NCBI GenBank assembly: GCA_023410875.1
Contig: JAEYPH010000039.1
Location: 9,919 to 73,918 of the forward strand
DNA: 64,000 nucleotides
Source: Bacillota bacterium
GTDB lineage: Bacteria > Bacillota > Clostridia > Christensenellales > UMGS416
Reading direction: 5' to 3'
The first letter of the stretch is position 1; the number at the start of each line of letters is the position of its first letter. Under the pieces are notes generated by a model, which was not told where the DNA came from, made no database searches, and saw only the letters and a program-made list of their open reading frames with translations. Positions 42,634 to 62,047 of the stretch are shown piece after piece. Made by a program: the position numbers and the translations under genes.

Positions 42634-42648
42634 GGGGAAGCGACGACG

Positions 42649-43620: not shown

Positions 43621-43797
43621 CGGTTCTGTTTCGGTTCTTTTTCTGCCCTGGCGGAGCTGCTTGGACCGGTCCTTGCGAGGTCAAAAGGCGCGCACCCCAT
43701 TCGAGAAGGAGAGCATCCATGAAGAAGACCATTGTATGGGCCGTCATCGCGCTGATGATGCTGAGCATGCTCAGCGCCTGCTCCGGCGCCCCGGCGA
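43621..43797 (+). repeat. Copy B of the duplicated 5' leader + RBS + signal-peptide segment
   Basis: See copy A. The encoded signal peptide MKKTIVWAVIALMMLSMLSAC is identical in both binding proteins. Confidence 0.8.
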
Positions 43798-45101: not shown

Positions 45102-45131
45102 AAGGCGTAACGCCTCCTTTTTGAAAGGCAC

Positions 45132-45163
45132 GGGAGAGGTCAACGCGAAAGCGGACCTCTCCC
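45132..45163 (+). terminator. Intercistronic hairpin after the SBP gene (attenuator or stabiliser)
   Basis: The sequence is gggagaggtc-(12 nt)-gacctctccc. A weaker aggcg/cgcct + TTTTT element precedes it at 45102-45122. Confidence 0.45.
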
Positions 45164-45192
45164 GGCGCGCTTTCGCTTATGAGAGAGAGGAT

Positions 45193-46098: not shown

Positions 46099-46099
46099 C

Positions 46100-46989: not shown

Positions 46990-47027
46990 AAAAAAGGAAC
47001 CGCCTCGAGTGAAGCGGTTCCTTTTTT
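46990..47027. terminator. Bidirectional rho-independent terminator between convergent operons
   Basis: The sequence is AAAAAA-ggaaccgc-(10 nt)-gcggttcc-TTTTTT. Confidence 0.8.
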
Positions 47028-47049
47028 GCCGTAACGGCGGTATACAGGA

Positions 47050-48771
47050 TTAGTTGAGGATCTTGGGATCGGCCTTGGCCTGTTCGTTGACGTAGGCGGC
47101 CATGTCTTCATAGCCAGCGGCCTTCATCTTGTTACGGATGTTCTCGATGACAGCCTTGCACTCGTCGTCGGTCTTGGTCAGGAAGGCCTTCTTGAGCTCG
47201 TCGCCGATGTTCAGCGTGGACATCTTCTCATCATAGGTGGGCTTGCCGGTCCAGCTGTCCACAACGTCGTCAACGGTCTTGTATTCGATGAACTTCAGGG
47301 GGTTGATCTCACGGGCCTTCACATAGCCGGCCTCGTTGTAGTCAGCGTCCCAGCCCTTGCTGAAGCTCGGGTCGGCGCCGATGAACTGGCCGCCAACGCC
47401 GAAGCCCATCAGGTTCCACGCGGTGGAGTCACCCTTGCGGGTCTTGTCGGCTTCTTCGGTGTACTTGGGCACGCCGTTGTCCATGGTGTAGGTCTGGCCT
47501 TCGATACCAAACTTGGACAGGATCAGGCCTTCGTCGGAGTTCAGGTAATCGATGAAAGCCAACGCCTTCTCGGGGGTCTTGATCTGCTTGGAGAAGAAGA
47601 CGACCGGGGTGCCGGTGCGGCCAATGCGCTCAACCTGAGAGGGGACGCCGCCCTGCATGTCCAGGATGGGGCCCAGGGGCACAAAGGTCATCTCGGGATT
47701 GGTGGTCATCAGAGTGCTCTGGAAAAAGCCATACTGGTTGGGATAGTGGCAGCCGAACACCGCGACGCGGCCGGTGACCATCTTTTCCTTGCCCTGCGTG
47801 TCGGTCTGAGTGAAGCACTCGGCGTCCATCAGGCCTTCGGCAACCAGCTTGCGCATGTAGAGGGCCCTATCAACATAAGCCTGGGTGAACACGTCATTGA
47901 CGAGGGTGCCGTCGGCCTGCTTGGCCCAGCCGGTCACGCCGCCGTTGTTGAAGCCCTTGAGGAACTGGCCATAGTCCCAGCCGTTGTGCCAGGTGCCGCC
48001 GGGGATGACGGGCTTGCCGTTGATGTCGGTGAAGCTGCCTTCCTTGATCTTCTTGAGCAGGTCATAGACTGCATCCTGCGTCGTCACGGATTCGGGGGTG
48101 ATGCCCAGCTTCTCCAGGATGTCCTTGCGGGCGAATAGGTTGTAGGCCCAGTCACGGACGTCTTCCTTGCCGCGGCCGGTCTGGGTGGGAATGACATAGA
48201 TCTCGCCGTTGTAATCTTTGTGGTTGACGTCCTTGTCCAGATACTTCTGGGAGATGACGCCCACTTCATACAGGCGGTTGATGTTGGGATACTTGCCGCT
48301 GTCCAGATAGGACTTCAGGGGCAGAAGCAGGCCCTGCACGCCGGCGTTCTTGATCAGTTCGCCTTCGCCGCCGGGATCGGTGCTCCAGTGAGGGCCGTTG
48401 GTCATGTCGGGCAGATCGCCGGAGGCGAACACGGTGGCGAGCTTTTCACGCTCGGAGCTGGTGATCGTCTCGACCTTCAGAGCGACGCCGGTCTTGGCCG
48501 TTATAGCCTGGGCAACGACGCCCTTGTCCCAACCGTCCGGGAAAGCGGCGGCACCGCCGTTCCAGTCCATCAGGAAGGAGTAGGTGGTGACTTCGGCTGC
48601 GGGTGCGGTAGAGGGTTCAACCGCGGTGGTGGGAGCCTCAGCAGAGGGGGTGGCTTCGGGGGCGGCGGTGGTGGCCGCAGCGGACGAGGCCGGGTTGGCA
48701 GGGGTTCCGCAGGCGGTCAATGATGCAATCATCATGCCGACCACCAGCAGAACGAGCAACTTGCTCTTCAT
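47050..48771 (-). CDS. Extracellular solute-binding lipoprotein (large LplA-like type)
   Basis: 573 aa. The signal peptide MKSKLLVLLVVGMMIASLTACGT carries a lipobox and is followed by an Ala/Thr/Pro linker. Confidence 0.85.
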   Translation of the reverse strand: MKSKLLVLLVVGMMIASLTACGTPANPASSAAATTAAPEATPSAEAPTTAVEPSTAPAAEVTTYSFLMDWNGGAAAFPDGWDKGVVAQAITAKTGVALKVETITSSEREKLATVFASGDLPDMTNGPHWSTDPGGEGELIKNAGVQGLLLPLKSYLDSGKYPNINRLYEVGVISQKYLDKDVNHKDYNGEIYVIPTQTGRGKEDVRDWAYNLFARKDILEKLGITPESVTTQDAVYDLLKKIKEGSFTDINGKPVIPGGTWHNGWDYGQFLKGFNNGGVTGWAKQADGTLVNDVFTQAYVDRALYMRKLVAEGLMDAECFTQTDTQGKEKMVTGRVAVFGCHYPNQYGFFQSTLMTTNPEMTFVPLGPILDMQGGVPSQVERIGRTGTPVVFFSKQIKTPEKALAFIDYLNSDEGLILSKFGIEGQTYTMDNGVPKYTEEADKTRKGDSTAWNLMGFGVGGQFIGADPSFSKGWDADYNEAGYVKAREINPLKFIEYKTVDDVVDSWTGKPTYDEKMSTLNIGDELKKAFLTKTDDECKAVIENIRNKMKAAGYEDMAAYVNEQAKADPKILN

Positions 48772-48818
48772 GGGGGGTCCTCCTTTTTATTGATCTCCTT
48801 TTGTATCTCGACCAAGGA

Positions 48819-49778
48819 TCATTCCTTGATGGAGCCGATCATGACACCCTTAACGAAGTATTTCTGCAGGAACGGATAAATGCAGATAATCGGAAGGGTC
48901 AGTATGATGAGGAAGGCCATCTTCAGCGATTCCGGCGTCGTGTTGCGGGCGTTTGCGCCCATCAGCACCTCGTTAATTTGTCCCTTGCCGCCGGTGGAGG
49001 TCGTGGAGTTCTCGAACACGGCCTGGCTCAGCAGGTCGTTGAGCAACGTGGCGGCGGGGAAGAGCTCGCGCTTGCGGGGCACGAAGTAGGCGCCGGTAAA
49101 CCAATCGTTCCAGTTGCCCACGCCGACGAACAGTGCGATGGTGGCCATGGCCGGTATCGACAGCGGGAAGATGATTCTGAAGAAAATCCCTAACTCGCTG
49201 CAACCATCCAGTCGTGCGGACTCATTAAGGCTTTCCGGTATCGTGTAGAAGAATGTGCGCAGTATGATCGCGTTGAAGAAGCTGTAGACGCCGGGCACCA
49301 CGTAGACCCAGAAGTTGTTGAGCAGGCCCAGCTGGCGGAACATGATGTACGTGGGGATCAGACCGCCGGAAAACAGCGTGGTGAAGTAAAAGTAGAAGAT
49401 CAACGCCGAGCGGCCGGGCAGGTCGCGCTTGGTCAGCGCGTAGGCCATCAACGCTGTGAAGAAACAAGACAGCACGATGGACAGCACCGTTCGCCCGACG
49501 GAAATTGAAAAGGCCGAGAAGATCAGCGGGTTCGTGAAGGCCTTGGTGTAGTTCTCCAAGGAGAACACGCGAGGTAGGAAGTAGATGCCGCCTTTCAGGG
49601 CGTCTAGGCCGGAGTTGAAGGACAGGATCAGGCAGTACCAGAAGGGGTACAGCGTCACGATAGCCAACGAGATCAGCAGCAAATGATTGACTGATTGCCC
49701 GACCTTGTATGCTGTGGACGTTCTGACCTTAAAGGGCTTGTTCTTTGATATATGCAACGGTGCACGATCGGTCGTCAT
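48819..49778 (-). CDS. Carbohydrate ABC transporter permease (LplC-like)
   Basis: 319-aa multi-TM ORF with EAA loop LNESARLDGCSELGIFFRIIFP. Confidence 0.9.
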   Translation of the reverse strand: MTTDRAPLHISKNKPFKVRTSTAYKVGQSVNHLLLISLAIVTLYPFWYCLILSFNSGLDALKGGIYFLPRVFSLENYTKAFTNPLIFSAFSISVGRTVLSIVLSCFFTALMAYALTKRDLPGRSALIFYFYFTTLFSGGLIPTYIMFRQLGLLNNFWVYVVPGVYSFFNAIILRTFFYTIPESLNESARLDGCSELGIFFRIIFPLSIPAMATIALFVGVGNWNDWFTGAYFVPRKRELFPAATLLNDLLSQAVFENSTTSTGGKGQINEVLMGANARNTTPESLKMAFLIILTLPIICIYPFLQKYFVKGVMIGSIKE

Positions 49779-49849
49779 TTTTTTCGCATTCCTTTCCTAG
49801 CAGCCAGCAAGTGTTTAAAAAACCACCGGCTTTTTAAACGATCGCTCCT

Positions 49850-50800
49850 TTACCACAGAGAGATCTCGGTCACCTTTTTGGATGTGTAGTTGGCGCCTAT
49901 GACCAGAGCCAAGCTGAGCACGCTGCGGAAAAGGCCCATGGCTGTGGCGTAGTCGAACTGGTTCATATTCAGACCGCGCTTGAGCACGTAGGTGTCGATA
50001 ACCTCGGAAACGTCAAAGGTCGGCGGCGTTTGCAACAGCAGGATCTGCTCCATGTTGGAGCCGAACAGGCCGCCAACGCTCAGCAGGAACATGATGCCGA
50101 TGGTGGGCGTAATGCCAGGCAGCGTGATGTGCTGCAGCTTCTGGGCGCCGTTGGCGCCGTCGATCTCGGCGGCTTCATATAGCGTGGGGTCGATGCCGGT
50201 TAACGCCGCCAGATAGATGATGGAACCGTAGCCGATGCCCTTCCACATGTCCGAGAGGACGATGAAAGGCAGGAACAGGTTCTTTTCGCCCAGATAGTAG
50301 ATGGGGTCCAGCCCCATCTGCAGGCGGATATCGTTGAACATGCCGGTGGTGGGAGAGAAGAGCTTATGGATCAGCGCGGCCACGACGACCCAGGACACGA
50401 AGTAGGGCAGGTAGGAGATCGTCTGTATCGTGCGCTTGAAACCGTTGCCGCGCAGGGCGTTGAGCATCAGGGCCAATATGATGGGAGCGGGGAAGTTGAT
50501 GATCAACTTGGTCAAGCTGATGACGACGGTGTTCTTAAGCACCTTGTAGAAGTACGGGTCACTCAGGAAGTCCTGGAAATACCGCAGGCCTACCCAGGGG
50601 CTGAAATACAAGCCCAGGTTGTACTGGAACTTCTTGAACGCAATGACGACGCCGGTCATCGGGTAGTAGCAAAACACCGCATACCATATCACCGCAGGCA
50701 GCAGGAACAGATAGAACGCGGCGTACTTCTGCAGGTTCTTCTGCAGGCTCAACCGGCGCTTGCTTTGGCCGGAGGCGCCTCCCAGGGTCTTTACACTCAT
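49850..50800 (-). CDS. Carbohydrate ABC transporter permease (LplB-like)
   Basis: 316-aa multi-TM ORF with EAA loop YEAAEIDGANGAQKLQHITLP. Confidence 0.9.
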   Translation of the reverse strand: MSVKTLGGASGQSKRRLSLQKNLQKYAAFYLFLLPAVIWYAVFCYYPMTGVVIAFKKFQYNLGLYFSPWVGLRYFQDFLSDPYFYKVLKNTVVISLTKLIINFPAPIILALMLNALRGNGFKRTIQTISYLPYFVSWVVVAALIHKLFSPTTGMFNDIRLQMGLDPIYYLGEKNLFLPFIVLSDMWKGIGYGSIIYLAALTGIDPTLYEAAEIDGANGAQKLQHITLPGITPTIGIMFLLSVGGLFGSNMEQILLLQTPPTFDVSEVIDTYVLKRGLNMNQFDYATAMGLFRSVLSLALVIGANYTSKKVTEISLW

Positions 50801-50928
50801 CTTGTGCCCACCTTATAAATTTGTTGATGCCACCGGCCAAATTGGCCGAAGGAGGGGCTTCACCCACGCGGACGAAGCCAATTAGAGATTAACCACGAAA
50901 TTGGGGCAATCAATTTGTATCTATTCAC

Positions 50929-50957
50929 AGTATAGAAATGCGCGCATGATTTGTCAA
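50929..50957 (-). promoter_or_regulatory. SigA-type promoter of the ABC importer operon
   Basis: On the minus strand: TTGACA (50952-50957), 17-nt spacer, TATACT (50929-50934). It lies about 125 nt upstream of the ATG at 50800. Confidence 0.6.
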
Positions 50958-50965
50958 GAAGAATC

Positions 50966-50976
50966 TTTACATGTAA
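50966..50976. promoter_or_regulatory. Candidate operator TTTACATGTAA (palindromic core TTACATGTAA)
   Basis: It lies just upstream of the -35 of the ABC promoter. The same motif recurs at 52444-52455 in the GH38 promoter. Confidence 0.4.
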
Positions 50977-51185
50977 CTTAAAAGTATATGTATGAACAAA
51001 AAAGGGCAATAGACGCGGATATCGGCGCAGAAAAGATGCCTCTGAGGGCGAAAGACCCACGAAAAAACCCAGAGCGACAGAAAAGCTGCAACCCTGGGCG
51101 TCTATAAAAACATGCACTTCCACCCTTTCATTGGGGTAGAGCTGAAACGTTTTATAGGAAAAAGATGGTATCCATTTCCACCGGG

Positions 51186-52256
51186 TTAGACCGGGGGCAG
51201 CGTTTTGACGGTGTGGCGCTTTTCCAGCCAGACTTCGTGGTCGATGCTTCGCAGCGGGCGCTTCTCCAGCAGAGCAGCGCTGATCTCATCAACTGCGCTC
51301 TTGCCCATCTGTGCGCTGGGCACATCGATGGCCGTGAAGGGAACGCCGTATACCGGCGAATAGGGATAATCGCCGTACCCCATGATGGACACGTCCTCAT
51401 AGATGCGCAGGCCGTTTTGGAACAGCCATTTGCTCACAGCCATGATGGCCAGACTGGTGTGGCTGCAAATGGCGGTGATGCGGCCGGACAGGATATCCTG
51501 CACGGTGAACCGCTGTAAAAACCCTGAAAGATAGTCATCGCTGCGGGTGAGCATCGTGGTGTCGTACTCGATGCCGGCATCCTTAAGGGCCTGCAAAAAG
51601 CCCTTTTCTCGCCGCTCAATGGTCAACACCGGGCGGGCACTGGAGACATTGGCGATGTATCTGTGGCCCTTTTTGGCCAAATAGGAGCCCATTTGGTAGC
51701 CGCCATCATAGTCGTCGCAGGTGATGCACGGCAAACCCATCTTTTTGGCGGGGTTGTCTATGAGGAGGATGGGCAGGCCGGCATCCTGCAGGCAGGCCAT
51801 CGCGCGGTAATCCTCGTCGGTTTCGTATCCGCAGGTGATGGCAGCGATGTAATCGCTGAGCTTCTCTCGGGCAATCTGCTCGTAGCGCTGCTGCGAGGCG
51901 GTGGTGTTGAGTATTTTATAGTCGAAGCCCAGCAGGTTGGCCTGCTCCACGCAGCCCATGGTGACGCGGAACAGAAAGCCGTCGCCCATCTCGTGGGGCA
52001 GAGCGATGAGCAGCTTGCCCCGGTAGGGCGTCTCATCCTGGGTGGCCATAACCAAGCCCTTGCCCGCCACGCGGCGGATCAGGCCTATACGAATCAGGTC
52101 TTCCACAGCCTTGCGGGCGGTGGGGCGGCTGACGCCAAAACGGCGGGCATAGCCCACCTCGGTGTCCAGCGCCTCGCCGGGCTTCTTGTCGCGGGCGTCG
52201 GCCTCGATGAGTTCCCGCACCTGCTCGTAAATCTTCTTCGTGTATCCATTATCCAT
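51186..52256 (-). CDS. AraR-like regulator (GntR-type winged HTH + LacI/PBP-type sugar-binding domain)
   Basis: 356 aa. The N-terminal GntR HTH is EVGYARRFGVSRPTARKAVEDLIRIGLIRRVAGKGLVMA. The C-terminal two-thirds has the periplasmic-binding-fold pattern. Confidence 0.8.
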   Translation of the reverse strand: MDNGYTKKIYEQVRELIEADARDKKPGEALDTEVGYARRFGVSRPTARKAVEDLIRIGLIRRVAGKGLVMATQDETPYRGKLLIALPHEMGDGFLFRVTMGCVEQANLLGFDYKILNTTASQQRYEQIAREKLSDYIAAITCGYETDEDYRAMACLQDAGLPILLIDNPAKKMGLPCITCDDYDGGYQMGSYLAKKGHRYIANVSSARPVLTIERREKGFLQALKDAGIEYDTTMLTRSDDYLSGFLQRFTVQDILSGRITAICSHTSLAIMAVSKWLFQNGLRIYEDVSIMGYGDYPYSPVYGVPFTAIDVPSAQMGKSAVDEISAALLEKRPLRSIDHEVWLEKRHTVKTLPPV

Positions 52257-52369
52257 GCGAAGACCAACTTCTCTTCATAAAATCGTTCATATCGAAACAG
52301 GCGGTTCGTCCCGAAACCCGTCGAAATTTTTTATGGAAACCTTACCCCACTCTTATGAATTTATTGAAT

Positions 52370-52398
52370 ATTATATATGCTGTAAGGCGAAATGACAA
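52370..52398 (-). promoter_or_regulatory. SigA-type promoter of the regulator gene
   Basis: On the minus strand: TTGTCA (52393-52398), 17-nt spacer, TATAAT (52370-52375). Confidence 0.6.
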
Positions 52399-52443
52399 CA
52401 ATTGTGAAATAAAAACATGTAATATTATTTGCAAGTCGGACTG

Positions 52444-52470
52444 TTTACATGTAAAAAAATATGGTATGAT
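52444..52470 (+). promoter_or_regulatory. Extended -10 promoter of the GH38 operon, overlapped by the palindrome TTTACATGTAAA
   Basis: TTTACA lies at 52444-52449, followed by a 15-nt spacer containing TG at 52462-52463, then TATGAT at 52465-52470. The perfect 12-bp palindrome at 52444-52455 covers the -35. A related half-site, AAACATGTAAT, lies at about 52413-52423. Confidence 0.5.
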
Positions 52471-52537
52471 GGTGCCGATGTGCGAGCCTTGGCGGCAACC
52501 AGCCGCCGCATGGCCGCGTAAAAAGGATGGAGAGCCT

Positions 52538-55435
52538 ATGCAAAGCCTTGTGCAGAAATTCACCGCCGTGAAGACCAGCGTCGGTGGGAACCGCGAAAAG
52601 CGGCATTATGAAGATACGTTCGGAATGCCCCGGGAAGAAGCCAACCGCATCACGATGCCCAACCGCTGGCAGCGCCGGCTGCTGGGCCAATTGGAGTTCG
52701 CCCTGAAGCTTTCCGAATCACTGAATGGTCGGTTTGACGACTGTCTGCATGAAACATTGGACTGCTTGCTGGAGCAGGTCGCCGATCAAGGCGCGCTGAC
52801 CCGCGACGACGTGGAACGCGCCGAGGCGAAGCTTTCGCCGTTGCAAGCCGCCGCAAAGGAATACCGGCTGATACTGGCAGGCCATGCCCACATCGACATG
52901 AACTGGATGTGGTCTTATCACGAGACCGTGGCCGCCACGCTGGAAACCTTCCGCACGATGCTGACGATCATGGACGAATACCAGGATTTCCACTTCTCCC
53001 AGTCTCAGGCGGCGGTTTATAAAATCGTCGAGGAATACGACCCGGCGCTGATGGAGCGCATCAAGGCCCGTATCGCCGAAGGCCGTTGGGAAGTCACCGC
53101 ATCGGCTTGGGTGGAGACGGACAAGAACATGCCGTCCACGGAGTCCCTGGTGCGCCATATTCTCTATACCAAAAAATACCTTCAGGAGACCTGGGGCGTA
53201 CCCGCCGACAGCCTGGAAGTGGATTTCTCCCCGGACACCTTTGGCCACAGCGCCCATTTGAGCGAGCTGAACGGGCATGGCGGCGTGAAATACTACTACC
53301 ATTGCCGCGGTCTGGACGGCGACAACGTGCTGTATCGCTGGCGCGCGCCCAGCGGCGCGGAGGTGCTTGCCTACCGTGAGCCCTATTGGTACAACAGCGC
53401 CATCACGCCGGTGATTGGCGCGGGCCTCATCGACGTGGCCCGCCGCAGCGGGGGGCTTAAGACCGGGCTGGTGGTATATGGCGTGGGTGACCACGGCGGC
53501 GGCCCCACCCGCCGCGACATCGAGCGCGCCCGAGAAATGCAGTCCTGGCCCATCTTCCCGGTCGTGGAGTTCGGCACCTTCCGCAAATACTTCCAGGCCG
53601 CCGAGAGCGTGCGCGAGAACCTGGAAGTCGTGGACCGCGAACTGAACTTCACCTTCCCCGGCTGTTACACGACCCAGAGCCGCATCAAGATGGGCAACCG
53701 CCGCAGCGAGGCCGCTTTGGCCGACGCCGAAGCCATCAATGCTCTGGCGGCGTCGTTGACCGGCGCCCCCTATCGCCACCGCGCCTATGAGCAGGCCTGG
53801 CAGAAGGTGCTCTTCACCCACTTCCATGACATTCTGACCGGCTCCTGTGTGCAGGACAGCCGCGAGCACGCCATGGGCCTGTTCAGCGAAGCGCAAGCCG
53901 CTGCTCAGTCCTCCCGTCTGATCACCCTGCGCGCCATCACGGCCCGCATCGATTCCTCGTCGCTGCTCAGCGATGAGGACGTGTCGGCCAGCCAATCCGA
54001 AGGGGCCGGCGTCGGGTACGGTATAGGCTATCCCACCCCTGGCGGCTATGGCACCGCTGGCCTTTGCGGCGCGGGGCTGCTGGCCGCTGAGCGCGGCGCC
54101 GGCCTTAAGCGAATCCTGCACATCTTCAACCCCAGCGCCCACCGCCGTGACGCCGTCGTCGAGGTCACCATTTGGGACTGGGTGGGCGACATGTCCCGCA
54201 TCCGCCTGCAAGACGGGCAGGGCAAACAAGCTGATTTCCAGTTGCTAGATAACGATCTGCGTACCTATTGGGATCACAAGTATTTCCGGCTGCTGCTGCG
54301 GGTAGATTTGCCGGCCATGGGTTATGCGACCTATGTGCTGGATGAGGCGGAAATGACCAGCTATCCCGTCTACTATCAGCCGCCGATCCGCACCACCGGC
54401 GCTTTCGACCCCTATGTGCTGGAAAACGAATTCCTGCGGGTGCAGTTGGACGCCGCCACCGCCGAGGTTGTATCCATGGTGGATAAGAAAACCGGCCGTG
54501 AGCTGATCCGCACCGGCGACACCGCCGGCCTGCGCCTGGTGGACACCGAGGCCAAAACGTCCAGCGCCTGGCTCATTGGCCGCTACATCCACACCGAGAA
54601 GGTCAATCGCAACATCAAGATCAACACCCTACCCGCCGGCCCCGTGCGCCGGGGCGTGGAAGTAGAAATCCCCTTCCGCAGCTCCACGGCCAAGCTCAGC
54701 CTGTGGCTGGACCAGGGCTGCCCGGCCTTGCAGGCCGACCTCAAGGTGGACTGGCACGAGATCGCCAAGGGTGATTCCCCCGTGCCGGTGCTGACCTATG
54801 CGGTGCCGCTGCAGGGGGCGCCGGAGCAATATCTTTTCGATGTGCCCGCGGGCGTACAGAGCCGCGGCCCCTATAGCCAGGACGTGCCCGGCTTGCAATA
54901 CGGCGCCGCCGTGGCCGCCGGCCGGGCGCTGGCGCTGGTTTGCGACAGCAAGTACGGCTACCGTGCCGATGGCCAGTCGCTGATCCTGACGCTGATCAAT
55001 GCAGCCAACAGCCCCGACCCGTATCCGGAACGCGGCATTCACACTGTGCGTTTTGCTGTGGCGGTGGCCGACGCATGCCCCAAGGCGTTGGAGGAGCTGG
55101 CTTTTGACCTGAACCGCCTGCCGGCGGCGGTCTCCGAGCGGCCGCACAGCGGCGATTTGCCGCTGGCTGCCTCTTTGCTGGAGTTGGAAGAGGGCGGCTC
55201 CGCGGTGATCAGCGGCATCAAAGCAGCCGAGGACGGCAAGGGCGTCATCGTGCGCCTGTATAACCCCATCGGTACATCCACAACGGCGCGGCTGGCGCTG
55301 ATGAAGGCTCCCCGCGCCGCCCACACGGTGGACGCGATGGAACAGCCCGCAGCGGGCAGCGCAGCCGTGGTCGGCAACACTGTAACCCTGCAACTGGGAC
55401 CCAACCGCCTGCAGGCGGTCCGGATAGAGTTCTAA
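52538..55435 (+). CDS. GH38 alpha-mannosidase (cytoplasmic type)
   Basis: Starts at ATG 52538 (MQSLVQKF) after GGATGGAGAG. The track start at 52355 lies in the AT-rich promoter. Motifs are GHAHIDMNWMW, FSPDTFGHS and GVGDHGGGPT. About 965 aa. Confidence 0.85.
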   Translation: MQSLVQKFTAVKTSVGGNREKRHYEDTFGMPREEANRITMPNRWQRRLLGQLEFALKLSESLNGRFDDCLHETLDCLLEQVADQGALTRDDVERAEAKLSPLQAAAKEYRLILAGHAHIDMNWMWSYHETVAATLETFRTMLTIMDEYQDFHFSQSQAAVYKIVEEYDPALMERIKARIAEGRWEVTASAWVETDKNMPSTESLVRHILYTKKYLQETWGVPADSLEVDFSPDTFGHSAHLSELNGHGGVKYYYHCRGLDGDNVLYRWRAPSGAEVLAYREPYWYNSAITPVIGAGLIDVARRSGGLKTGLVVYGVGDHGGGPTRRDIERAREMQSWPIFPVVEFGTFRKYFQAAESVRENLEVVDRELNFTFPGCYTTQSRIKMGNRRSEAALADAEAINALAASLTGAPYRHRAYEQAWQKVLFTHFHDILTGSCVQDSREHAMGLFSEAQAAAQSSRLITLRAITARIDSSSLLSDEDVSASQSEGAGVGYGIGYPTPGGYGTAGLCGAGLLAAERGAGLKRILHIFNPSAHRRDAVVEVTIWDWVGDMSRIRLQDGQGKQADFQLLDNDLRTYWDHKYFRLLLRVDLPAMGYATYVLDEAEMTSYPVYYQPPIRTTGAFDPYVLENEFLRVQLDAATAEVVSMVDKKTGRELIRTGDTAGLRLVDTEAKTSSAWLIGRYIHTEKVNRNIKINTLPAGPVRRGVEVEIPFRSSTAKLSLWLDQGCPALQADLKVDWHEIAKGDSPVPVLTYAVPLQGAPEQYLFDVPAGVQSRGPYSQDVPGLQYGAAVAAGRALALVCDSKYGYRADGQSLILTLINAANSPDPYPERGIHTVRFAVAVADACPKALEELAFDLNRLPAAVSERPHSGDLPLAASLLELEEGGSAVISGIKAAEDGKGVIVRLYNPIGTSTTARLALMKAPRAAHTVDAMEQPAAGSAAVVGNTVTLQLGPNRLQAVRIEF

Positions 55436-55468
55436 CCGGAAACAGGAAAGAGGAAAAGGAGACTACCC

Positions 55469-56563
55469 ATGGACAGAAAGCTGCGCATTGGTTTCATCGG
55501 CACCGGTGGAATCGCCCATGCCCACATGGCCGCTTACTCCAAGTTCGACGATGTGGAGATCGTCGGTGGCGCCGACATCGTGCCCGGCAAGGCTCGGGCT
55601 TTCCTGGACAAGTGGAACCTCCCCAATGCCCAGGCCTTCGAGAGCGCCAAAGAGCTCATCGAAAACGTCGAGATGGACGGCGTCACCGTTTGCACCTACA
55701 ACAAGACTCACGCCGAGTGCGTCGTCGCCGCTTTCGAGGCCGGCCTGCACGTGCAGTGTGAGAAACCCATGAGCTTTACGCTGCAGGAAGCAGTCGATAT
55801 GGTGCGCGCCTCCCGCAAGGCCAACAAAATGTTGACCATCGGCTTCCAGCCCCGCTATGACCGCATGCGCCAGAAGGTTGACGATATCATCAATTCCGGC
55901 GCACTGGGCAAGGTGTATTACATCCAGAGCGGCGGCGGCCGCCGCCGGGGTATCCCGGGCAGCACCTTTGTGCAGGAAGAAAAGGCGGGCTTCGGCTGCC
56001 TGGGCGACATCGGCTGCTATTCCATCGACGAGTGCCTGCATGCCGTGCACTATCCCAAGCCGCTGACGGTCTCCGCTGTGGCGACGGATTACTTTGGCAC
56101 CAACCCCAAATATTGGGCCGACGCCGAGAACTTTCATGTGGACGACTTCTCCGTGGCTTTTGTGCGCTGCGAGGGTGACTTGACCTTCGTATTCAAGCAG
56201 AGTTGGGCCATGCACGCCGACAGCCTGGGCGACACGCTGTGGCTGGGCACCGAGGGCGCCATCAAGGTCTGCAACGGCTTTGACTATGCCAACAAGCCCT
56301 CCCGCGTCATGTATTTCACCGACGTCAACGGCATGCAGGTGGACAGCTTCGTATTGCCCAGCCACGCCTTTGACGCTTACTCCGGCCCCGGCGGCATCGA
56401 CATCTTTGCCGCCAAGGTGCGCGCCTACTGCGATGCCATCATCAATGGCGATCCCGCACCGATCCCCGGCGAGGAGATCCTGATGAACCAGGCCATCTGC
56501 GATGGCATCTATCGTTCCGCCAAGCTCAAGAAGGAAGTTGAGATCATCATCCCGAAGATTTAA
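55469..56563 (+). CDS. Gfo/Idh/MocA-family NAD(P)-dependent oxidoreductase
   Basis: 364 aa. The N-terminal Rossmann motif is LRIGFIGTGGIAHAH, with the EKP motif (VQCEKPMS). Confidence 0.85.
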   Translation: MDRKLRIGFIGTGGIAHAHMAAYSKFDDVEIVGGADIVPGKARAFLDKWNLPNAQAFESAKELIENVEMDGVTVCTYNKTHAECVVAAFEAGLHVQCEKPMSFTLQEAVDMVRASRKANKMLTIGFQPRYDRMRQKVDDIINSGALGKVYYIQSGGGRRRGIPGSTFVQEEKAGFGCLGDIGCYSIDECLHAVHYPKPLTVSAVATDYFGTNPKYWADAENFHVDDFSVAFVRCEGDLTFVFKQSWAMHADSLGDTLWLGTEGAIKVCNGFDYANKPSRVMYFTDVNGMQVDSFVLPSHAFDAYSGPGGIDIFAAKVRAYCDAIINGDPAPIPGEEILMNQAICDGIYRSAKLKKEVEIIIPKI

Positions 56564-56602
56564 TGCAACATACAACTGTCAATCTTAAAGGAGGCCTTCC
56601 CC

Positions 56603-57583
56603 ATGATCCAAGTAGCGATGCTCTCCAAGTGGCATGTGCATGCCGGCGACTACGCCCGCGGCGTACAGAACTCCGGCGTGGCCAAGATCACCTGCGTGTG
56701 GGATGAGGACGCCCAGCGCGGCCAGACCTGGGCCGACGAGCTGGGTGTGCCCTTTGTGGCTGATCTGGACACGCTGCTGGCCCGCAAGGATGTGGACGCC
56801 GTCGTCGTGGACACGCCCACCAGCGACCACTGCCGCGTGATGGTGGCCGCCGCCAACGCCGGCAAGCACATCTTCACCGAGAAGGCCCTGGCCCCCACGG
56901 TGGCCGAGTGCAAGCAGATCGCCGAAGCCGTGGCCAAAAACGGCGTCAAGTTCGTGATCTCCCACCCCTTCCTGACCACCGGCCTTGCGCAGTATGCCAA
57001 GCAGCTGATCGAAGACGGCACGCTGGGCGACATCCACTATATGCGCTTCCGCAACGCCCATAACGGCTCGCTGGCCGGCTGGCTGCCCCCTCACTGGTAT
57101 GATATGGAGAAGACCGGCGGCGGCGCCATGATGGACCTGGGCTGCCACCCGATGTACACCGCTGCCTATCTGCTGGGCAAGCCCAGCCGCATCACGTCCA
57201 TGTTCAACCGCACCCATGCCCCCGCCGGCGACGACAACGCCGTAAGCGTCGTGGAGTTCGAGAACAAGGCCATCGCCGTGCTGGAGACGTCCTTTGTGTC
57301 CCCCGCTGATGCCGGCTGCTTCGAGCTGCTGGGCTCCAAGGGCGCACTGGTCAGCGTTGGCGGCCAGGTCAAGGTGCGCAGCACCGACTTCGGCGTGGAT
57401 GGCTGGGTGCTGATCGACAAGCTGCCAGCGGCCTTGCCCATGGCCATGCAGCAGTGGTTCGACGGCATCCTCAACGGCACCCCGATCCCCTATGACACCG
57501 AACGCGGCATCGCTCTGACCGAGCTGCTGGAGAACGCTTACAAGGCCGATCGCGAGCAGCGCATCGTGAAGATCGAGGGATAA
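56603..57583 (+). CDS. Gfo/Idh/MocA-family NAD(P)-dependent oxidoreductase (second paralog)
   Basis: 326 aa. The N-terminus is MIQVAMLSKWHVHAGDYA, with an EKA-type motif (IFTEKALA). It has the typical family length and pattern. Confidence 0.8.
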   Translation: MIQVAMLSKWHVHAGDYARGVQNSGVAKITCVWDEDAQRGQTWADELGVPFVADLDTLLARKDVDAVVVDTPTSDHCRVMVAAANAGKHIFTEKALAPTVAECKQIAEAVAKNGVKFVISHPFLTTGLAQYAKQLIEDGTLGDIHYMRFRNAHNGSLAGWLPPHWYDMEKTGGGAMMDLGCHPMYTAAYLLGKPSRITSMFNRTHAPAGDDNAVSVVEFENKAIAVLETSFVSPADAGCFELLGSKGALVSVGGQVKVRSTDFGVDGWVLIDKLPAALPMAMQQWFDGILNGTPIPYDTERGIALTELLENAYKADREQRIVKIEG

Positions 57584-57590
57584 CGCGTCC

Positions 57591-58481
57591 ATGACCGGGA
57601 CTATCTATAACATCCAGCGCTTCTCCATCCACGACGGACCGGGCATTCGCACCACGGTGTTCTTCAAGGGTTGCAACCTGCGATGCCTGTGGTGCCACAA
57701 CCCCGAATCCATCTCCCGGCGGCCGGAAGTGGAATTCTACCCGGAGCGCTGCATCGGGTGTGGGCGGTGCTTTGACGCCTGCCCCACCCATGCTCATATT
57801 CTGGACGAGACCGGCGCACACCGCATCGACCGCAGCCTCTGCGAGGGATGCCTGGCGTGCGCCGGCGTCTGCTATGCCGAAGCGCTGGTGGGCGTGGGCC
57901 GCCAGGTGAGCGCGGAAGAGCTGCTGGCCTCCATCCTGACCGACCGGCCCTACTATGAGCAATCCGGCGGCGGCGTCACGTTCTCCGGTGGCGAGTGCAT
58001 GGCGCAGGCGAATTTCCTAAGCGAGATACTGGCCGCCTGCCGGCGCGAGGGCATCCACACCGCCGTGGACACCGCGGGCAACGTGCCCTGGGAGAGCTTC
58101 GAGAAGGTGTTGGAGCACACGGATCTCTTCCTCTATGACCTGAAGGCCGCCGACAGCGAAACCCACCGGCGTCTGACCGGCGCGGGAAACGAACGCATCC
58201 TGAGCAACCTGAAAAACTTGAGCGTGGCAAGAAAACGCATCATCGTACGCATACCCTATATACCGGGGTGCAACGACGGTGAGATTGAGGCCATGGCGAA
58301 TATTCTGAAGGCTTTAGCCGTGGAGCGCGTGGAAGTGATGCCCTATCACCGCCTGGGGGAGGGCAAATACGCCGCGCTGGGCATCACTGCCCAAACCGCC
58401 ATCACCATCCCCACGCCTCAGGAAACCCAGGCCGCCGTGGAACTGCTGCGCAGCCACGGCATCAACGCCCATCCGGCATGA
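57591..58481 (+). CDS. Glycyl-radical enzyme activating enzyme (radical SAM, with two auxiliary 4Fe-4S motifs)
   Basis: The N-terminus is IQRFSIHDGPGIRTTVFFKGCNLRCLWCHNPES (CX3CX2C). Auxiliary cluster motifs are CIGCGRCFDACP and CEGCLACAGVC. GGVTFSGGE is also present. Confidence 0.9.
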   Translation: MTGTIYNIQRFSIHDGPGIRTTVFFKGCNLRCLWCHNPESISRRPEVEFYPERCIGCGRCFDACPTHAHILDETGAHRIDRSLCEGCLACAGVCYAEALVGVGRQVSAEELLASILTDRPYYEQSGGGVTFSGGECMAQANFLSEILAACRREGIHTAVDTAGNVPWESFEKVLEHTDLFLYDLKAADSETHRRLTGAGNERILSNLKNLSVARKRIIVRIPYIPGCNDGEIEAMANILKALAVERVEVMPYHRLGEGKYAALGITAQTAITIPTPQETQAAVELLRSHGINAHPA

Positions 58482-58507
58482 CCGAGCATCCAAGGGGGAG
58501 ACGCCTA

Positions 58508-60685
58508 ATGCTGAATACCGAGAGAGCGGCGATGTCGCCGCTGTACGCCGGGCGCATCCAGCGCCTGCATGAAGACAAGATGGCCATCAACGAGGTCAAG
58601 ATCCGTCTGATCGGCCGCGGAAAGATGGACTTCGACGACTGGGGATTCGTCTATTACCCGGATTTCAAATTCACCGCGCCCAGCGACCGAGAAGATGGCA
58701 TCATCTGCGGATATGTACCCATCGGGCGCACGCTGCGCAAGTTTTTCCAGGAGATTCCCAAGTATGTGAACCCCAACAGCGCGCTGGCCGGCGCGTGGAT
58801 AAGCCCCATCGGCAACTATGTGACCATCCGCATGCCGCCGGAACTGATTCCGCAGGATCTGGTGCCCATCTGGAAGGAATATGACACGCGTCCGGGCTTT
58901 GGGGCCATGAACCACTGCGCGCCGGACATGAACATCGGCCTGCAGCTGGGTTGGGGCGGCCTCCTCCGGAAGATTCGCTACCATCGCGACTTCAACGCGC
59001 CGGCGGACACCGCCTTCTACGACGGCGAGGAGCAGGTCGTGCTGGGCATGCAGGAATGGATCGCCGCGCTGGCGGCCCAGTGCCGGGCCATGGCCGCGGA
59101 CGAGGCCGACGCCGACACCCGCGCCAACCTGTTGGAAATGGCTGAAATGAACGAGTGGCTCGTGGACAACCCGCCGCGCACGCTGCGGGAGGCTTGCCAG
59201 TTCCTGGCCCACTTCCAGACGCTGGACCGCACCTATTTCGTGGGCGGCGCGCTGCAGCAGTTGGACGAATTGCTGCGGCCCTGGTATGAGCGCGATATCG
59301 CCGAAGGCCGCGTGACCGACGAGCAGGCCGTATGGCACCTGGCCAGCCTGTTCTTCAACGACACCCACTATTCGCAGATCGCGGGCCTGACCGCCGACGG
59401 CTCCCGGGACATGACCAGCCGGTTAAGCTTCCTAATTCTGGATGCGCTGCACCTGCTGAAGATCCCTGTGAACATGGCCGTGCGCGTGCACGACGGCGTG
59501 AACCCGGAGCTGCTGCGCCGCAGCCTGGAATACATCCTGGAGGATGGCTCCGGCGTGGACTACTCATGCAATGTAGGCTGTGAGCAGGGCTATGCCGCCA
59601 ACGGCTATCCGCTGGAGCTGGCCCGGCAGCGGGCCAAGGTGGGCTGCAACTGGACCGCCCTGCCCGGCCGCGAATACCCGCTGCAGGACGTGACCCGTGC
59701 CAACCTGGCCTTTGCGCTGACCCACGCGCTGGAGGACGTGCGCGCCAACCCTTCGCTGGAGGCGCTGTTTGAGCGCTTCGCCCATCACACCGGCGTCATC
59801 GTGGACAGCATCAAGGCGGGTTACGACCGCCACTATGAGCTCGTGGGCGTCAACACGCCGGAAATGGTGTACAACCTCTTCATGCACGGCCCGGTGGAGC
59901 GGGGCATCAACTGCTCCCAGGGCGGCGTGGACATCCTGAATTTCAACATCGACGGCGTGGCGCTGGCCACGGTGGCCGATTCCTTGGCCGCCATCCAGCA
60001 GCGCGTTGTGGACGAAGGCCGCCTGAGCTGGGCGCAGCTCTACGAGGCGCTGGACCGCAACTACGAGGGCATGGAGGACGTGCGGCTGATGCTTCGGAAC
60101 ATCCCGCGCTTTGGCAGCCCCAATTCCCTGGCGGAAAGCTGGGCGCTGCGGGTGCGCGATTGCTTCGTGCACGCGTGCAAGCGCAGTGGCACGCCCAAGT
60201 ACAATCTGCCCATCCTGCCGGGGATGTTCTCCCATGGCACGATAATGGAGCTGGGCTCCAACCTTGGCGCCACGCCCAACGGCCGGCGCTCCGGCGAGGC
60301 CATCAGCCACTCCAACGAGCCCGACCCGGGCTTTGCCCGGGGGCTGGATACGTTCTCGCCGTCGCTCAAGGCCACGGCTGTGGCCAAGGCGCAGCCGGGG
60401 TACGGCAACTCGGCGCCGCTGCACCTGGACATCGACACCGAGATGCTGGCCCACGCCGGCGGCATTGAGGCGCTGATCGCGCTGATACACGCCCACAACC
60501 ACATGGGCGGCACGCTGATCAACCTGAACTGCCTGACCAAGGAGCGCTTGCTCAAGGCCCACGAGAACCCCGACCGCTACCCGGACCTGCTGGTCCGCGT
60601 AACAGGGTATTCGGCGTTTTTCGCGTCGCTGTCCAAGGAGTATAGGCAGCAGATTATAGACAGATTCTTGTCCAAAGCGGGCTGA
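58508..60685 (+). CDS. Glycyl-radical enzyme (PFL-fold), divergent clade of unknown specificity
   Basis: The C-terminal radical motif is LLVRVTGYSAFFASL (Gly codon 60605-60607). Other landmarks are PRTLREACQF and ATPNGRRSGEAISHS. The Cys loop is VGCNWTALPG (Cys codon 59645-59647). ATG 58508 follows AAGGGGGAG by 7 nt. An upstream in-frame ATG at 58478 overlaps the activase stop. Confidence 0.85.
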   Translation: MLNTERAAMSPLYAGRIQRLHEDKMAINEVKIRLIGRGKMDFDDWGFVYYPDFKFTAPSDREDGIICGYVPIGRTLRKFFQEIPKYVNPNSALAGAWISPIGNYVTIRMPPELIPQDLVPIWKEYDTRPGFGAMNHCAPDMNIGLQLGWGGLLRKIRYHRDFNAPADTAFYDGEEQVVLGMQEWIAALAAQCRAMAADEADADTRANLLEMAEMNEWLVDNPPRTLREACQFLAHFQTLDRTYFVGGALQQLDELLRPWYERDIAEGRVTDEQAVWHLASLFFNDTHYSQIAGLTADGSRDMTSRLSFLILDALHLLKIPVNMAVRVHDGVNPELLRRSLEYILEDGSGVDYSCNVGCEQGYAANGYPLELARQRAKVGCNWTALPGREYPLQDVTRANLAFALTHALEDVRANPSLEALFERFAHHTGVIVDSIKAGYDRHYELVGVNTPEMVYNLFMHGPVERGINCSQGGVDILNFNIDGVALATVADSLAAIQQRVVDEGRLSWAQLYEALDRNYEGMEDVRLMLRNIPRFGSPNSLAESWALRVRDCFVHACKRSGTPKYNLPILPGMFSHGTIMELGSNLGATPNGRRSGEAISHSNEPDPGFARGLDTFSPSLKATAVAKAQPGYGNSAPLHLDIDTEMLAHAGGIEALIALIHAHNHMGGTLINLNCLTKERLLKAHENPDRYPDLLVRVTGYSAFFASLSKEYRQQIIDRFLSKAG

Positions 60686-60699
60686 GCAATCATCAAATG

Positions 60700-60733
60700 A
60701 AGACAGCCGGGGCATTTGCTCCGGCTGTTTCTT
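60700..60733. terminator. Hairpin terminator between the convergent GRE and DUF2961 genes
   Basis: The sequence is acagccgg-(10 nt)-ccggctgt followed by TTCTT. Confidence 0.6.
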
Positions 60734-60738
60734 GCACT

Positions 60739-61764
60739 CTATCTCATAGTAAGCTCCGCATCGCCGGGCAAGGGTTTCAGCGGTGCGAAGGGCAGCGTCT
60801 GATACCAGTAGGCCACGGAGGTGTAATCGTCGTATCGCGGCCCGGTCCAGCCCAGATTGTCGATGGTCATGCGGAACCCGGTATTGAAGTGGATGGGGTC
60901 CTGCACGTGCCAACGGTACAGCAGGAAGCGCTGCTGGCCGTTGTATACCTCCCGGTTGCTGCCAAGTATGGCGTACATGCCCACATAATGCCCGCTGTAG
61001 GTCTGGTATTTGTTGAGTATGATGTCGTTGCCGAAACCGTAGGAGCCGCAAAAATAGTCCTCCGTGCCGGTGTAATGGATGGAAGGATACTCGTCGTCAT
61101 CCAGGTACATCCTGGCCTCTCCCTCCACCCAGCAGGTGTTGTTGCCGTTCATGCCCGCAGCCAGGCTGACGCCGACGAACTGCCCCTTGCCGCGGATGCC
61201 GTCTATGATCGTATAGGAGCGTCCCCTGGAGACCGGGTGTTCCTGTCGGTAAGAGGCGTGGAAGTACCCGATGTTGTGCGGCAGGTCGCATTTGCAGCCG
61301 GTAATGATGTAGTAAAGGTCGTGGGCTTCCTGGCCGCGGTTTTCCACGGTGATGCGGCAGTGCCGCAGGAAAGGCATCTCCCAGTAGCAGTTGAGACCCC
61401 GGCCGGGGGCCACCAGCACCATGGCGGAATTCAGAGAAGGATAGTTGCCGTTGACGTCTTTAAAGTTTTCATCATAAGCGCAGCCGAAGAAAGCCGACAG
61501 GGGAGATTCCACCGAAGGGTACTCATTGTCCTCCCAATAAAACCGCAGTATGAAGTTGTGGCCGGTATAGCCGGTAAACCAGATGCTCTGTATCATGCCC
61601 GGTCCGTCGGTATCCACCAAGGTGACCGTTTCTCCCGGATGGATGGTGACCGTGGGGCGTAACTTGGTGCAATCACCGCCGCGGGAACCGCCCGCCCGTT
61701 GGCCCGTGGGGTTCTCCGCGGAAAATGCAAAGGTCTGCGCGTCGGAAATGAGATAGTTCTTCAT
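60739..61764 (-). CDS. DUF2961 family protein (GH172-like), second paralog
   Basis: 341 aa. Motifs are FSAENPTGQRAGGSRGG..TIHPGETVTLVDTDGPGMIQSIWFT, WVEGEARMYLDDDEYPSIHYTGTEDYF and VAYWYQ. Confidence 0.75.
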   Translation of the reverse strand: MKNYLISDAQTFAFSAENPTGQRAGGSRGGDCTKLRPTVTIHPGETVTLVDTDGPGMIQSIWFTGYTGHNFILRFYWEDNEYPSVESPLSAFFGCAYDENFKDVNGNYPSLNSAMVLVAPGRGLNCYWEMPFLRHCRITVENRGQEAHDLYYIITGCKCDLPHNIGYFHASYRQEHPVSRGRSYTIIDGIRGKGQFVGVSLAAGMNGNNTCWVEGEARMYLDDDEYPSIHYTGTEDYFCGSYGFGNDIILNKYQTYSGHYVGMYAILGSNREVYNGQQRFLLYRWHVQDPIHFNTGFRMTIDNLGWTGPRYDDYTSVAYWYQTLPFAPLKPLPGDAELTMR

Positions 61765-62047
61765 TGTCGGTATCCTGACTCCCCGTAAAAGTGTACTACC
61801 AATTATAGTCTGTTTTGGCGTGCTATGCCACAGTCTCCCACAGTACTATCAGACATGCCGGAGGGTTTTGGTTTTCCACGGTCGTCCGCTGTCATATGCT
61901 AACAACGAAAGGATGTGTCTTTCGTTGGCGGTATGCAAAGTGATCGTGACCAACCTCTACAAGAGCGACGACGAGGCACTCAGGAAGAAGAACTTCACCC
62001 TGCTGCTGGCAAAATACATCACAGCCCAGAGCCAAAAAGCCTGAGGC

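Follow-up and report, generated by a model that had tools for sequence, protein, structure and literature searches.

A Predicted Glycyl-Radical Enzyme with Tryptophan in Place of the Catalytic Glutamate, Encoded with an α-Mannosidase and Two Oxidoreductases in a Candidate Sugar-Responsive Regulon

We describe a locus in a stretch of 64,000 nucleotides (nt) of contig JAEYPH010000039.1 from a Bacillota bacterium (assembly GCA_023410875.1); the whole stretch is referred to below as the window. The locus encodes a predicted glycyl-radical enzyme (GRE) with its activase, downstream of genes for a GH38 α-mannosidase and two Gfo/Idh/MocA oxidoreductases (termed GfoA and GfoB), and close to genes for an AraR-like regulator and an ATP-binding cassette (ABC) importer. 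The most valuable point to come out of the analysis is that the GRE appears, from alignments, to belong to a large clade that has Trp in place of the catalytic Glu, i.e., at the second position after the catalytic Cys (hence "CxW" clade), and of which no characterized member was found in the PDB, in NCBIfam, in a review (PMC13450708), or in preprints. Our general model, to which we give about an even chance, is that the locus is a mannoside regulon in which a neutral, sugar-derived ring is the substrate of the GRE while the Gfo enzymes handle a keto-sugar.

RESULTS

The Cys Loop of the GRE and Its Relatives

Genes of the locus were checked by listing open reading frames (ORFs) and by Pfam and NCBIfam profile searches of the 64-kb window. 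The GRE contains both domains of the superfamily (PF02901, E = 1e-69; PF01228, E = 3e-12). Its glycine motif is RVTGYSAFF, in which Gly-700 is invariant, and its Cys loop is VGCNWT, with a single Cys. Within the family alignment Cys-380, Asn-381, and Trp-382 are all invariant, and Cys-380 is also invariant in a second alignment of 35 diverse GREs. The activase scored 350 bits against TIGR02494 (cutoff 174), and contains the motif CX3CX2C at Cys-28 (CNLRCLWC) as well as two ferredoxin-like CX2CX2CX3C motifs.

Among solved structures, the best match to the GRE was CutC (E = 4e-48), followed by PflD (E = 1.6e-42), and in HMMER alignments its GCNW sequence falls over the GCVE of both. All GRE 1,2-eliminases, together with three isomerases (HplG, YbiW, and PflD), keep a C-x-E sequence, of which the Glu binds a substrate hydroxyl, and a Cys-Cys pair is confined to pyruvate formate-lyase (PFL) and TdcE (PMC13450708). 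No NCBIfam equivalog cutoff was reached or approached by the GRE, with scores (bits/cutoff) of 149/1050 for CutC, 154/1100 for HypD, and 173/1000 for HpsG. The closest NCBIfam model was TIGR01774, representing the PFL2/glycerol-dehydratase subfamily, at 199 bits against a cutoff of 678. With C-N-W instead of C-x-E, and with all equivalog scores below cutoff, identity with a known eliminase or isomerase was rejected.

Close relatives of the GRE (62-97% identity) form more than 120 clusters at 90% identity, and the only names they carry, if any, are "formate C-acetyltransferase" and "pyruvate formate lyase." An exhaustive HMMER search covered 1.84 billion representatives and returned 483 with E values of 1e-30 or below, the best 150 of which (representatives of 50%-identity clusters) were aligned; 56 of these 150 had C-x-W and 49 had C-x-E. 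All 41 of the nearest representatives that covered the Cys loop had GC[N/H/Q/F]W or a near variant, and GC[NH]W persists in sister subfamilies with as little as about 25% identity. Members of the CxW clade also share a conserved acidic residue in a segment, FNDTHYSQ in the GRE, where the C-x-E enzymes have an insertion instead. Judged by these alignments, the clade marked by Trp at Cys+2 to which the GRE is assigned is both broad and deep.

Neighborhoods of Related GREs

The gene neighborhoods of related GREs were compared in a species-level scan (one genome per species), which gave at least 149 GRE matches; 80 loci were inspected, with up to 10 kb on each side. In total, 167 loci were fetched, and are labeled L001 onward. 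Cultured hosts were Anaerocolumna species, Ruminiclostridium cellobioparum, Eisenbergiella tayi (two copies), Gallintestinimicrobium, Robinsoniella, and Scatolibacter; others were many metagenome-assembled genomes (MAGs) from rumen, termite, and sediment, and, outside the Bacillota, members of the Chloroflexota, Latescibacterota, Hydrogenedentota, and Spirochaetes. A Latescibacterota MAG (L069) has two GRE-activase pairs within 10 kb (1292-4390 and 8032-11100), one encoding a CxW enzyme (53% identity) and the other a GRE 25% identical to that in the window.

Partners were counted within 10 kb of the GRE, at the 66 loci where the flank was 8 kb or longer. An activase was present at 62 of them, ABC permeases at 26, GH38 genes (of two subfamilies) at 14, two Gfo genes at 13, a large binding protein at 12, a protein of about 760 residues that we term X758 at 11, and a GtaA-like six-hairpin protein at 6. 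The 133 genes immediately flanking activase-GRE pairs included GH38 (11), GfoB (9), X758 (7), AraC (7), AraR-like (6), and GtaA-like (5) genes, together with AP_endonuc_2 (3), URO-D (3), and ThuA (2) family genes; single glycosidases of families GH2, GH3, GH36, GH59, and GH78 were also found beside the pair. Most of the other neighbors across the loci encoded glycosidases, ABC transporters for sugars, or sugar regulators.

The preliminary description of this DNA had asked whether GH38, the two oxidoreductases, the activase, and the GRE form a conserved cassette in other genomes. The partners do recur, but in rearranged form, and a GH38 gene and two Gfo genes were both near the GRE at only 4 of the 66 loci (with two more examples from other sources). 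The order in the window is GH38-GfoA-GfoB-activase-GRE, whereas two loci with the full gene set (L081 and L082) have activase-GRE-GfoB-GfoA-GH38. E. tayi has importer-X758-activase-GRE-GH38-GH38 with a divergent AraR-like regulator, Anaerocolumna has activase-GRE-GfoB-GfoA between AraC regulators with a GH38 gene 6.5 kb upstream, and an Anaerolineae MAG has GfoA-GfoB, then after an interval X758-GxGYxYP-GRE-GH38. Altogether, the GH38 gene, the Gfo pair, the importer, and the AraR-like regulator recur with the GRE in at least eight different gene orders. As far as gene neighborhoods can indicate, a link of the GRE to carbohydrates is supported, but neither a fixed five-gene cassette nor the substrate suggested in the preliminary description (an oxidized or anhydro hexose, or the aglycone) is.

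Other genes at these loci deserve mention. X758 lies between a binding-protein gene and activase-GRE, or beside GH38, in at least 12 genomes (L047:6825-9101; also L020, L032, L043, L048-L050, L052, L056, L060, L066, L078, and L090). It matched no Pfam model at E values up to 0.1 and no solved structure at E values up to 1, and may represent an undescribed glycosidase family. Genes of the URO-D family adjoin activase-GRE at L085:6964-8034, L087:12204-13274, L130:12054-14131, and L067 from 14673 onward, and at L130 two of them stand in tandem between GfoB and the activase. In the second E. tayi copy and in Robinsoniella peoriensis (L054:7880-14505 and L059), the GRE pair lies between a pyridoxal phosphate (PLP)-dependent lyase of Cys/Met metabolism and a 768-residue protein without a Pfam match. 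Both loci are downstream of ABC permeases, and their context is unlike that of the GH38 loci although the GREs are 57-58% identical to that in the window. Genes for dihydrodipicolinate synthase and diaminopimelate epimerase near Lachnospiraceae loci were considered as an aldolase step, and rejected as being most simply dapA and dapF of lysine biosynthesis.

A Shared Palindrome Suggests a Link between Importer and Operon

The regulator combines a GntR winged helix (PF00392, residues 7-68) with a LacI-type fold (PF00532 and PF13377, residues 92-335), i.e., it has an AraR-like architecture. Regulators of the same architecture are divergent from activase-GRE in E. tayi, R. cellobioparum, and others. 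The palindrome TTTACATGTAA(A) occurs at two sites only in the 64 kb, with 0.22 matches expected by chance. One copy is beside the -35 element of an importer promoter found by the promoter scan (TTGACA-17-TATACT, 50957-50929, minus strand). The other overlaps a -35-like TTTACA ahead of the GH38 gene, with TATGAT 15 nt further on. The sharing of the palindrome suggests that one DNA-binding protein, presumably the regulator whose gene stands between them, would control both the importer and the GH38-to-GRE operon. Among the 167 fetched loci the core TTACATGTAA was present in two only (L003 and L067), in both about 55 nt upstream of the start of the related activase.

The preliminary description had also placed the GRE in one operon with the GH38 and oxidoreductase genes, and the spacing agrees with this. 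The gaps of 33, 39, and 7 nt that it gave were confirmed; the fourth, which it described as an overlap between activase and GRE, becomes a gap of 26 nt when measured from the corrected GRE start. No convincing terminator was found within the plus-strand operon, the terminator scan yielding weak matches inside genes only. Taken together, the layout from 46990 to 60734 suggests one sugar-responsive regulon.

The Two Gfo/Idh/MocA Oxidoreductases

GfoA, which carries the dinucleotide-binding fingerprint GFIGTGGIA, matched DgpA (7xr9) end to end (residues 4-353) with E = 2.8e-46, although at moderate identity only; the next unrelated structure matched with E = 5e-22. DgpA is a gut-bacterial enzyme that oxidizes C3 of C- and O-glycosides (PMC9939296, PMC11239390). 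Orthologues of GfoA are present at 12 GRE loci, and at 10 of these the identity was 74-81%. The best solved relatives of GfoB were RgNanOx (6z3b) and YjhC (6o15), both with E values of about 1e-21, with 1,5-anhydrofructose reductase at E = 7e-18. GfoB begins (56603-56660) with MIQVAMLSKWHVHAGDYARG, lacking the usual GxGxxG dinucleotide-binding fingerprint, and its Pfam match starts at residue 18.

Wherever GfoA accompanies a GRE, GfoB adjoins it. GfoB was also often the next gene in a reverse test, in which GfoA orthologues (66-83% identity) were located in metagenome contigs. At four loci (L090, L096, L130, and L159) the genes that follow GfoA/GfoB, with GfoA 66-82% identical, include those for an activase and for a sister CxW GRE that is 38-48% identical to the one in the window. 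Because these more distant GREs are also flanked by GfoA/GfoB, the Gfo-GRE link appears to span GRE subfamilies.

The Importer and the α-Mannosidase

The 573-residue binding protein of the importer starts with a lipoprotein signal (MKSKLLVLLVVGMMIASLTAC) and matches no Pfam model. Homologues with 32-44% identity come after two permeases in 12 GRE loci. The first permease has copies with 50-56% identity in related GRE loci, and the second has copies with 46-57% identity in the GRE loci of E. tayi, Gallintestinimicrobium, and Scatolibacter. The ten genes of the locus and its flanks included none for a phosphotransferase system (PTS), kinase, or aldolase, uptake being by the ABC system.

The predicted mannosidase contains all four GH38 domains (PF01074, PF09261, PF07748, and PF17677) above cutoff, and among solved structures it is closest to Ams1 (E = 3e-55) and to bacterial α-mannosidases. 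It is 53% identical to the GH38 enzyme encoded downstream of the GRE in E. tayi. Identity with mannosylglycerate hydrolase was rejected (NF007331, 111 versus a cutoff of 1138).

Gene Layout of the Locus

All ten genes listed in the preliminary description were present, with the families that it had named (ORF listing, Pfam, and NCBIfam), but some starts were corrected (Table 1). The GH38 gene most likely starts at 52538 rather than 52355; Met-62 of the longer ORF aligns with Met-1 of the E. tayi orthologue, and the ribosome-binding site AAGGATGGAGAG precedes the later start. The GRE most likely starts at 58508, with AAGGGGGAG 8 nt upstream, and family members are 721-730 residues long.

Table 1. 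Positions and Assignments of the Features of the Locus in the Window
Feature	Position	Strand	Basis or remark
Strong intrinsic-terminator-like hairpin ending the ABC importer operon	46990-47027	-	17-bp stem and T-run directly 3' of the binding-protein gene
Solute-binding lipoprotein, 573 residues	47050-48771	-	ORF; lipobox LTAC
ABC sugar permease, second membrane subunit	48819-49778	-	BPD_transp_1
ABC sugar permease, first membrane subunit	49850-50800	-	BPD_transp_1
Palindromic operator-like site TTTACATGTAAC	50966-50977		Adjoins ABC promoter
AraR-like regulator	51186-52256	-	Pfam GntR, Peripla_BP_1, Peripla_BP_3
Perfect palindrome TTTACATGTAAA	52444-52455		83 nt upstream of GH38 start
GH38 α-mannosidase, Ams1-like, predicted cytoplasmic, 965 residues	52538-55435	+	Four GH38 Pfam domains
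GfoA, Gfo/Idh/MocA oxidoreductase, DgpA-like (sugar or glycoside 3-oxidoreductase type)	55469-56563	+	Pfam; match to DgpA 7xr9
GfoB, second Gfo/Idh/MocA oxidoreductase	56603-57583	+	Pfam
GRE activase (radical S-adenosylmethionine, SAM)	57591-58481	+	TIGR02494
GRE of the CxW clade, 725 residues	58508-60685	+	PFL-like and Gly_radical domains
Hairpin (7-bp stem, 10-nt loop; 60704-60727) followed by TTTCTT, between the convergent GRE and DUF2961 genes	60704-60734		Read from the sequence
DUF2961 gene, convergent	60739-61764	-	ORF and family match

The DUF2961 gene, which had been listed as a GH172-like member of the locus, is indeed a good GH172 relative (8ic8, E = 3e-55). However, it was not found at any of the 80 related GRE loci. 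In the closest relative (L001, 94% nucleotide identity), colinearity with the window extends to the GRE stop, ending at 60681, and resumes from a serine recombinase gene; the 1.2-kb segment with DUF2961 (60682-61885) is swapped there for 2.8 kb of unrelated DNA (L001:3878-6702). Because it is replaced in L001 and absent from the related loci, we regard this segment as strain-variable, and the DUF2961 gene as not part of the unit. The replacement DNA in L001 includes a 511-residue ORF without a Pfam match, and the large serine recombinase gene of the window (62048-63604; Resolvase, Recombinase, and Zn-ribbon domains) is directly beside the variable spot.

Upstream of the locus, the region 34300-46939 is packed with further sugar-uptake systems. 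It encodes a zinc-type alcohol dehydrogenase, a response regulator with AraC output, a 939-residue histidine kinase, and two pairs of permeases, one after a 652-residue protein without a Pfam match and the other with a second binding protein. Elsewhere in the window, the G+C content is 0.47-0.49 at 8001-10000 and 20001-22000, versus an average of about 0.59.

DISCUSSION

Proposed Function

In our general model, the AraR-like repressor gene lies between two divergent promoters sharing the TTTACATGTAA palindrome, of which one would drive the lipoprotein-dependent ABC importer and the other the five-gene operon GH38-GfoA-GfoB-activase-GRE. The importer would take in an unphosphorylated mannose-containing oligosaccharide or glycoside, from which the GH38 enzyme would trim α-mannose. 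The substrate of the GRE would then be a neutral, non-phosphorylated, carbohydrate-derived molecule; both this substrate and the bond cleaved are inferred. The GRE has its predicted radical glycine and catalytic Cys intact, with Asn-Trp in place of the x-Glu of known eliminases and isomerases. Its most conservative chemistry would be abstraction of hydrogen from a hydroxyl-bearing ring carbon, after which a neighboring oxygen substituent (hydroxyl, ring oxygen, glycosyl-oxy, or alkoxy) would be expelled to leave a deoxy-keto sugar. The invariant Trp might stack on the pyranose ring, and the base role of the missing Glu might be taken by another residue, possibly Asp-285, His-287, or Tyr-288, which are conserved in the clade. 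The two oxidoreductases would either make a keto-sugar substrate or reduce a keto product, the whole being redox-neutral. Hints of 3-keto-sugar chemistry come from other loci, where ThuA and AP_endonuc_2 genes are neighbors of the GRE. There is precedent for radical dehydration coupled to a dehydrogenase on a pyranose, i.e., the radical-SAM diol-dehydratase AprD4 with the reductase AprD3.

A bolder version of this model is that the CxW enzymes form a new mechanistic class of GREs acting on neutral sugars or glycosides. They would perform radical cleavage of pyranose C-O bonds, possibly glycosidic or ether bonds that hydrolases cannot attack, without a catalytic Glu, and together with DgpA-like oxidoreductases would provide a new anaerobic route for mannose glycans in gut, rumen, termite, and sediment bacteria. 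We put this forward tentatively, considering it less probable than not.

Several results weigh against the general model. Of the 66 loci, more than 40 lacked every recurring partner included in our search, and the immediate neighbors there were heterogeneous. The E. tayi locus has a GH38 gene, an ABC importer, and a GRE but no Gfo genes; therefore, the oxidoreductases are not required in cis. Conversely, many metagenome GfoA genes stand alone among housekeeping genes (proline, cell wall, and rRNA modification). The nearest homologues of the window GH38 enzyme (73%, 60%, and 54% identity) are encoded with GH130, with GH125 and a GH2 β-mannosidase, or alone, and in this second reverse test there was no GRE near them. 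These homologues place the GH38 enzyme in the ordinary type of high-mannose/N-glycan pathway, with the GRE as an add-on in a subset of such loci. Neither GfoA nor the GH38 subfamily of the window is obligately tied to a GRE. With a spacer of 15 nt, the plus-strand promoter escaped detection in the consensus scan. Finally, an AlphaFold2 model of the GRE (with 17 family members) had a predicted local distance difference test score (pLDDT) of 73, falling below 50 at the Cys and Gly loops, and was for that reason not used to map the active site. The roles suggested for Trp-382 and Asp-285 are consequently guesses from the alignment.

Alternative Explanations

The absence of GH38 and Gfo genes from most loci could also mean that activase and GRE make up a two-gene module of their own, whose substrate would be a shared non-sugar aglycone or an unrelated metabolite, so that their position in the operon has no pathway meaning. 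Consistent with this, some genomes have iron-transport and housekeeping genes among the neighbors of the pair, a PLP-dependent Cys/Met lyase gene adjoins it in two genomes, and L003 and L067 each have a separate promoter for activase and GRE. However, in the window the pair is tied to the Gfo genes by close spacing (7 and 26 nt) and the lack of a terminator, and the importer and operon carry the same palindrome. Moreover, among the 133 flanking genes GH38 came directly after the GRE at 10 loci and GfoB at 8, in varied orders and in two phyla, whereas in a rough control only one of some 25 long metagenome loci had a GH38 gene close to GfoA. We consider an independent module unlikely, although not negligibly so. 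A different explanation keeps the oxidoreductases but makes the Gfo pair and GRE a non-hydrolytic module for glycoside cleavage, which would replace GH125, GH130, or GH2 enzymes for linkages that GH38 cannot cut. In a DgpA-like reaction GfoA would oxidize the glycoside at C3; cleavage of the activated bond would fall to the GRE, in place of a DgpB/C-type lyase, and the keto-sugar would be reduced by GfoB. The full-length match of GfoA to DgpA fits this scheme, as does the window locus itself, from which a DgpB/C- or AP_endonuc_2-type lyase and the GH125, GH130, or GH2 β-mannosidase genes that accompany the nearest GH38 homologues are all missing; elsewhere, ThuA and AP_endonuc_2 genes flank the GRE. 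Nevertheless, we think it rather improbable, since the GRE of E. tayi-type loci has no Gfo genes beside it, the identity between GfoA and DgpA is moderate, and many GfoA orthologues stand alone. As a matter of general chemical reasoning, 3-keto-glycosides also eliminate readily by acid-base chemistry, so that a radical enzyme is not obviously needed.

Two further proposals would assign the GRE to reactions that are already known. It might be a non-phosphorylated counterpart of YbiW and PflD, which are the only known sugar-acting GREs, and open 1,5-anhydromannitol or 1,5-anhydroglucitol (made by the Gfo enzymes from anhydrofructose) to give 1-deoxyfructose. The rank of PflD among solved relatives and the weak similarity of GfoB to 1,5-anhydrofructose reductase would fit, but the CXE Glu that deprotonates the C2 hydroxyl in YbiW and PflD is Trp in the GRE, TIGR01774 falls far short of its cutoff, the locus has no PTS, kinase, or aldolase, and the link to GH38 is left without a reason; we regard this as quite improbable. 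Most database names say instead that the GRE is a formate-lyase, acting on pyruvate or 2-ketobutyrate, in line with source annotations such as "pyruvate-formate lyase" or "formate C-acetyltransferase" and with the Pfam PFL-like domain. Yet the loop has a single Cys rather than a Cys-Cys pair, scores were 49.8 bits for TIGR01255 (cutoff 994.2) and 166 for PRK09983 (cutoff 1109), the match to E. coli PFL (E = 5e-14) covered the C-terminal part only (residues 540-731), and the activase has two extra ferredoxin-like cluster motifs, like non-PFL activases. A formate-lyase is therefore scarcely credible.

Significance

GREs carry out chemistry that ordinary acid-base enzymes cannot, and each newly characterized branch has revealed new anaerobic reactions (of choline, hydroxyproline, sulfonates, and anhydro-sugars). 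The CxW branch occurs in bacteria of the human gut, rumen, termite gut, and sediment, and has no solved structure or curated family. Its repeated placement beside α-mannosidases, other glycosidases, and oxidoreductases of the 3-keto-sugar type suggests that undescribed radical chemistry takes part in some anaerobic glycan breakdown, which would be relevant both to radical enzymology and to glycan metabolism in the gut. Cultured carriers of a related locus include Eisenbergiella tayi DSM 26961, Anaerocolumna species, and Ruminiclostridium cellobioparum.

Comparison with Known Systems

The locus resembles Firmicute high-mannose/N-glycan loci in its GH38 subfamily (60-73% identity), type of regulator, and type of ABC importer. 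However, those loci are without the GRE, activase, and Gfo pair, whereas the window locus is without GH125, GH130, and GH2. GfoA aligns end to end, although at moderate identity, with DgpA of the DgpA/B/C system for C-glycoside deglycosylation; this system and related 3-keto-glycoside pathways typically have paired Gfo/Idh/MocA enzymes around an enzyme that breaks the bond (PMC9939296, PMC11239390). Unlike them, the window locus has a GRE and no xylose-isomerase-like lyase, in the context of an α-mannoside rather than a flavonoid glucoside; an AP_endonuc_2-type gene is present in some other GRE loci only. The GRE 1,2-eliminases (CutC, glycerol and propanediol dehydratases, HypD, IslA, and HpsG) provide the best matches to the GRE, and resemble it in having one catalytic Cys, an RVxG glycine motif, and auxiliary clusters in the activase. 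The window GRE and its whole clade differ from them in having Trp in place of the CXE Glu that hydrogen-bonds the substrate hydroxyl, and the window GRE is about 60-120 residues shorter.

The preliminary description had proposed an undescribed route combining GH38, Gfo, and a GRE. In the literature searched, including bioRxiv preprints on GREs from 2023-2026, nothing relevant linked a GRE with GH38, a mannosidase, or DgpA-type enzymes, and we conclude that the combination is undescribed and is not one of formate metabolism. A radical route for a sugar is, however, not new in itself, because the GREs YbiW and PflD, which act on anhydro-sugar phosphates, have already been described. In the "anhydroglycolysis" of E. 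coli, they convert 1,5-anhydroglucitol-6-phosphate or 1,5-anhydromannitol-6-phosphate to 1-deoxyfructose-6-phosphate (PMC13450708). They have a C-x-E loop, PTS-phosphorylated substrates, and aldolases downstream, whereas the window locus has a C-N-W loop, an ABC importer, and GH38 with two Gfo/Idh/MocA enzymes, and no kinase or aldolase. Like the window GRE, which has PflD among its best solved matches, YbiW and PflD are GREs encoded with their own activases in a context of sugar utilization, and they show that C-O bonds in pyranose-type rings are open to cleavage by GREs (PMC13450708).

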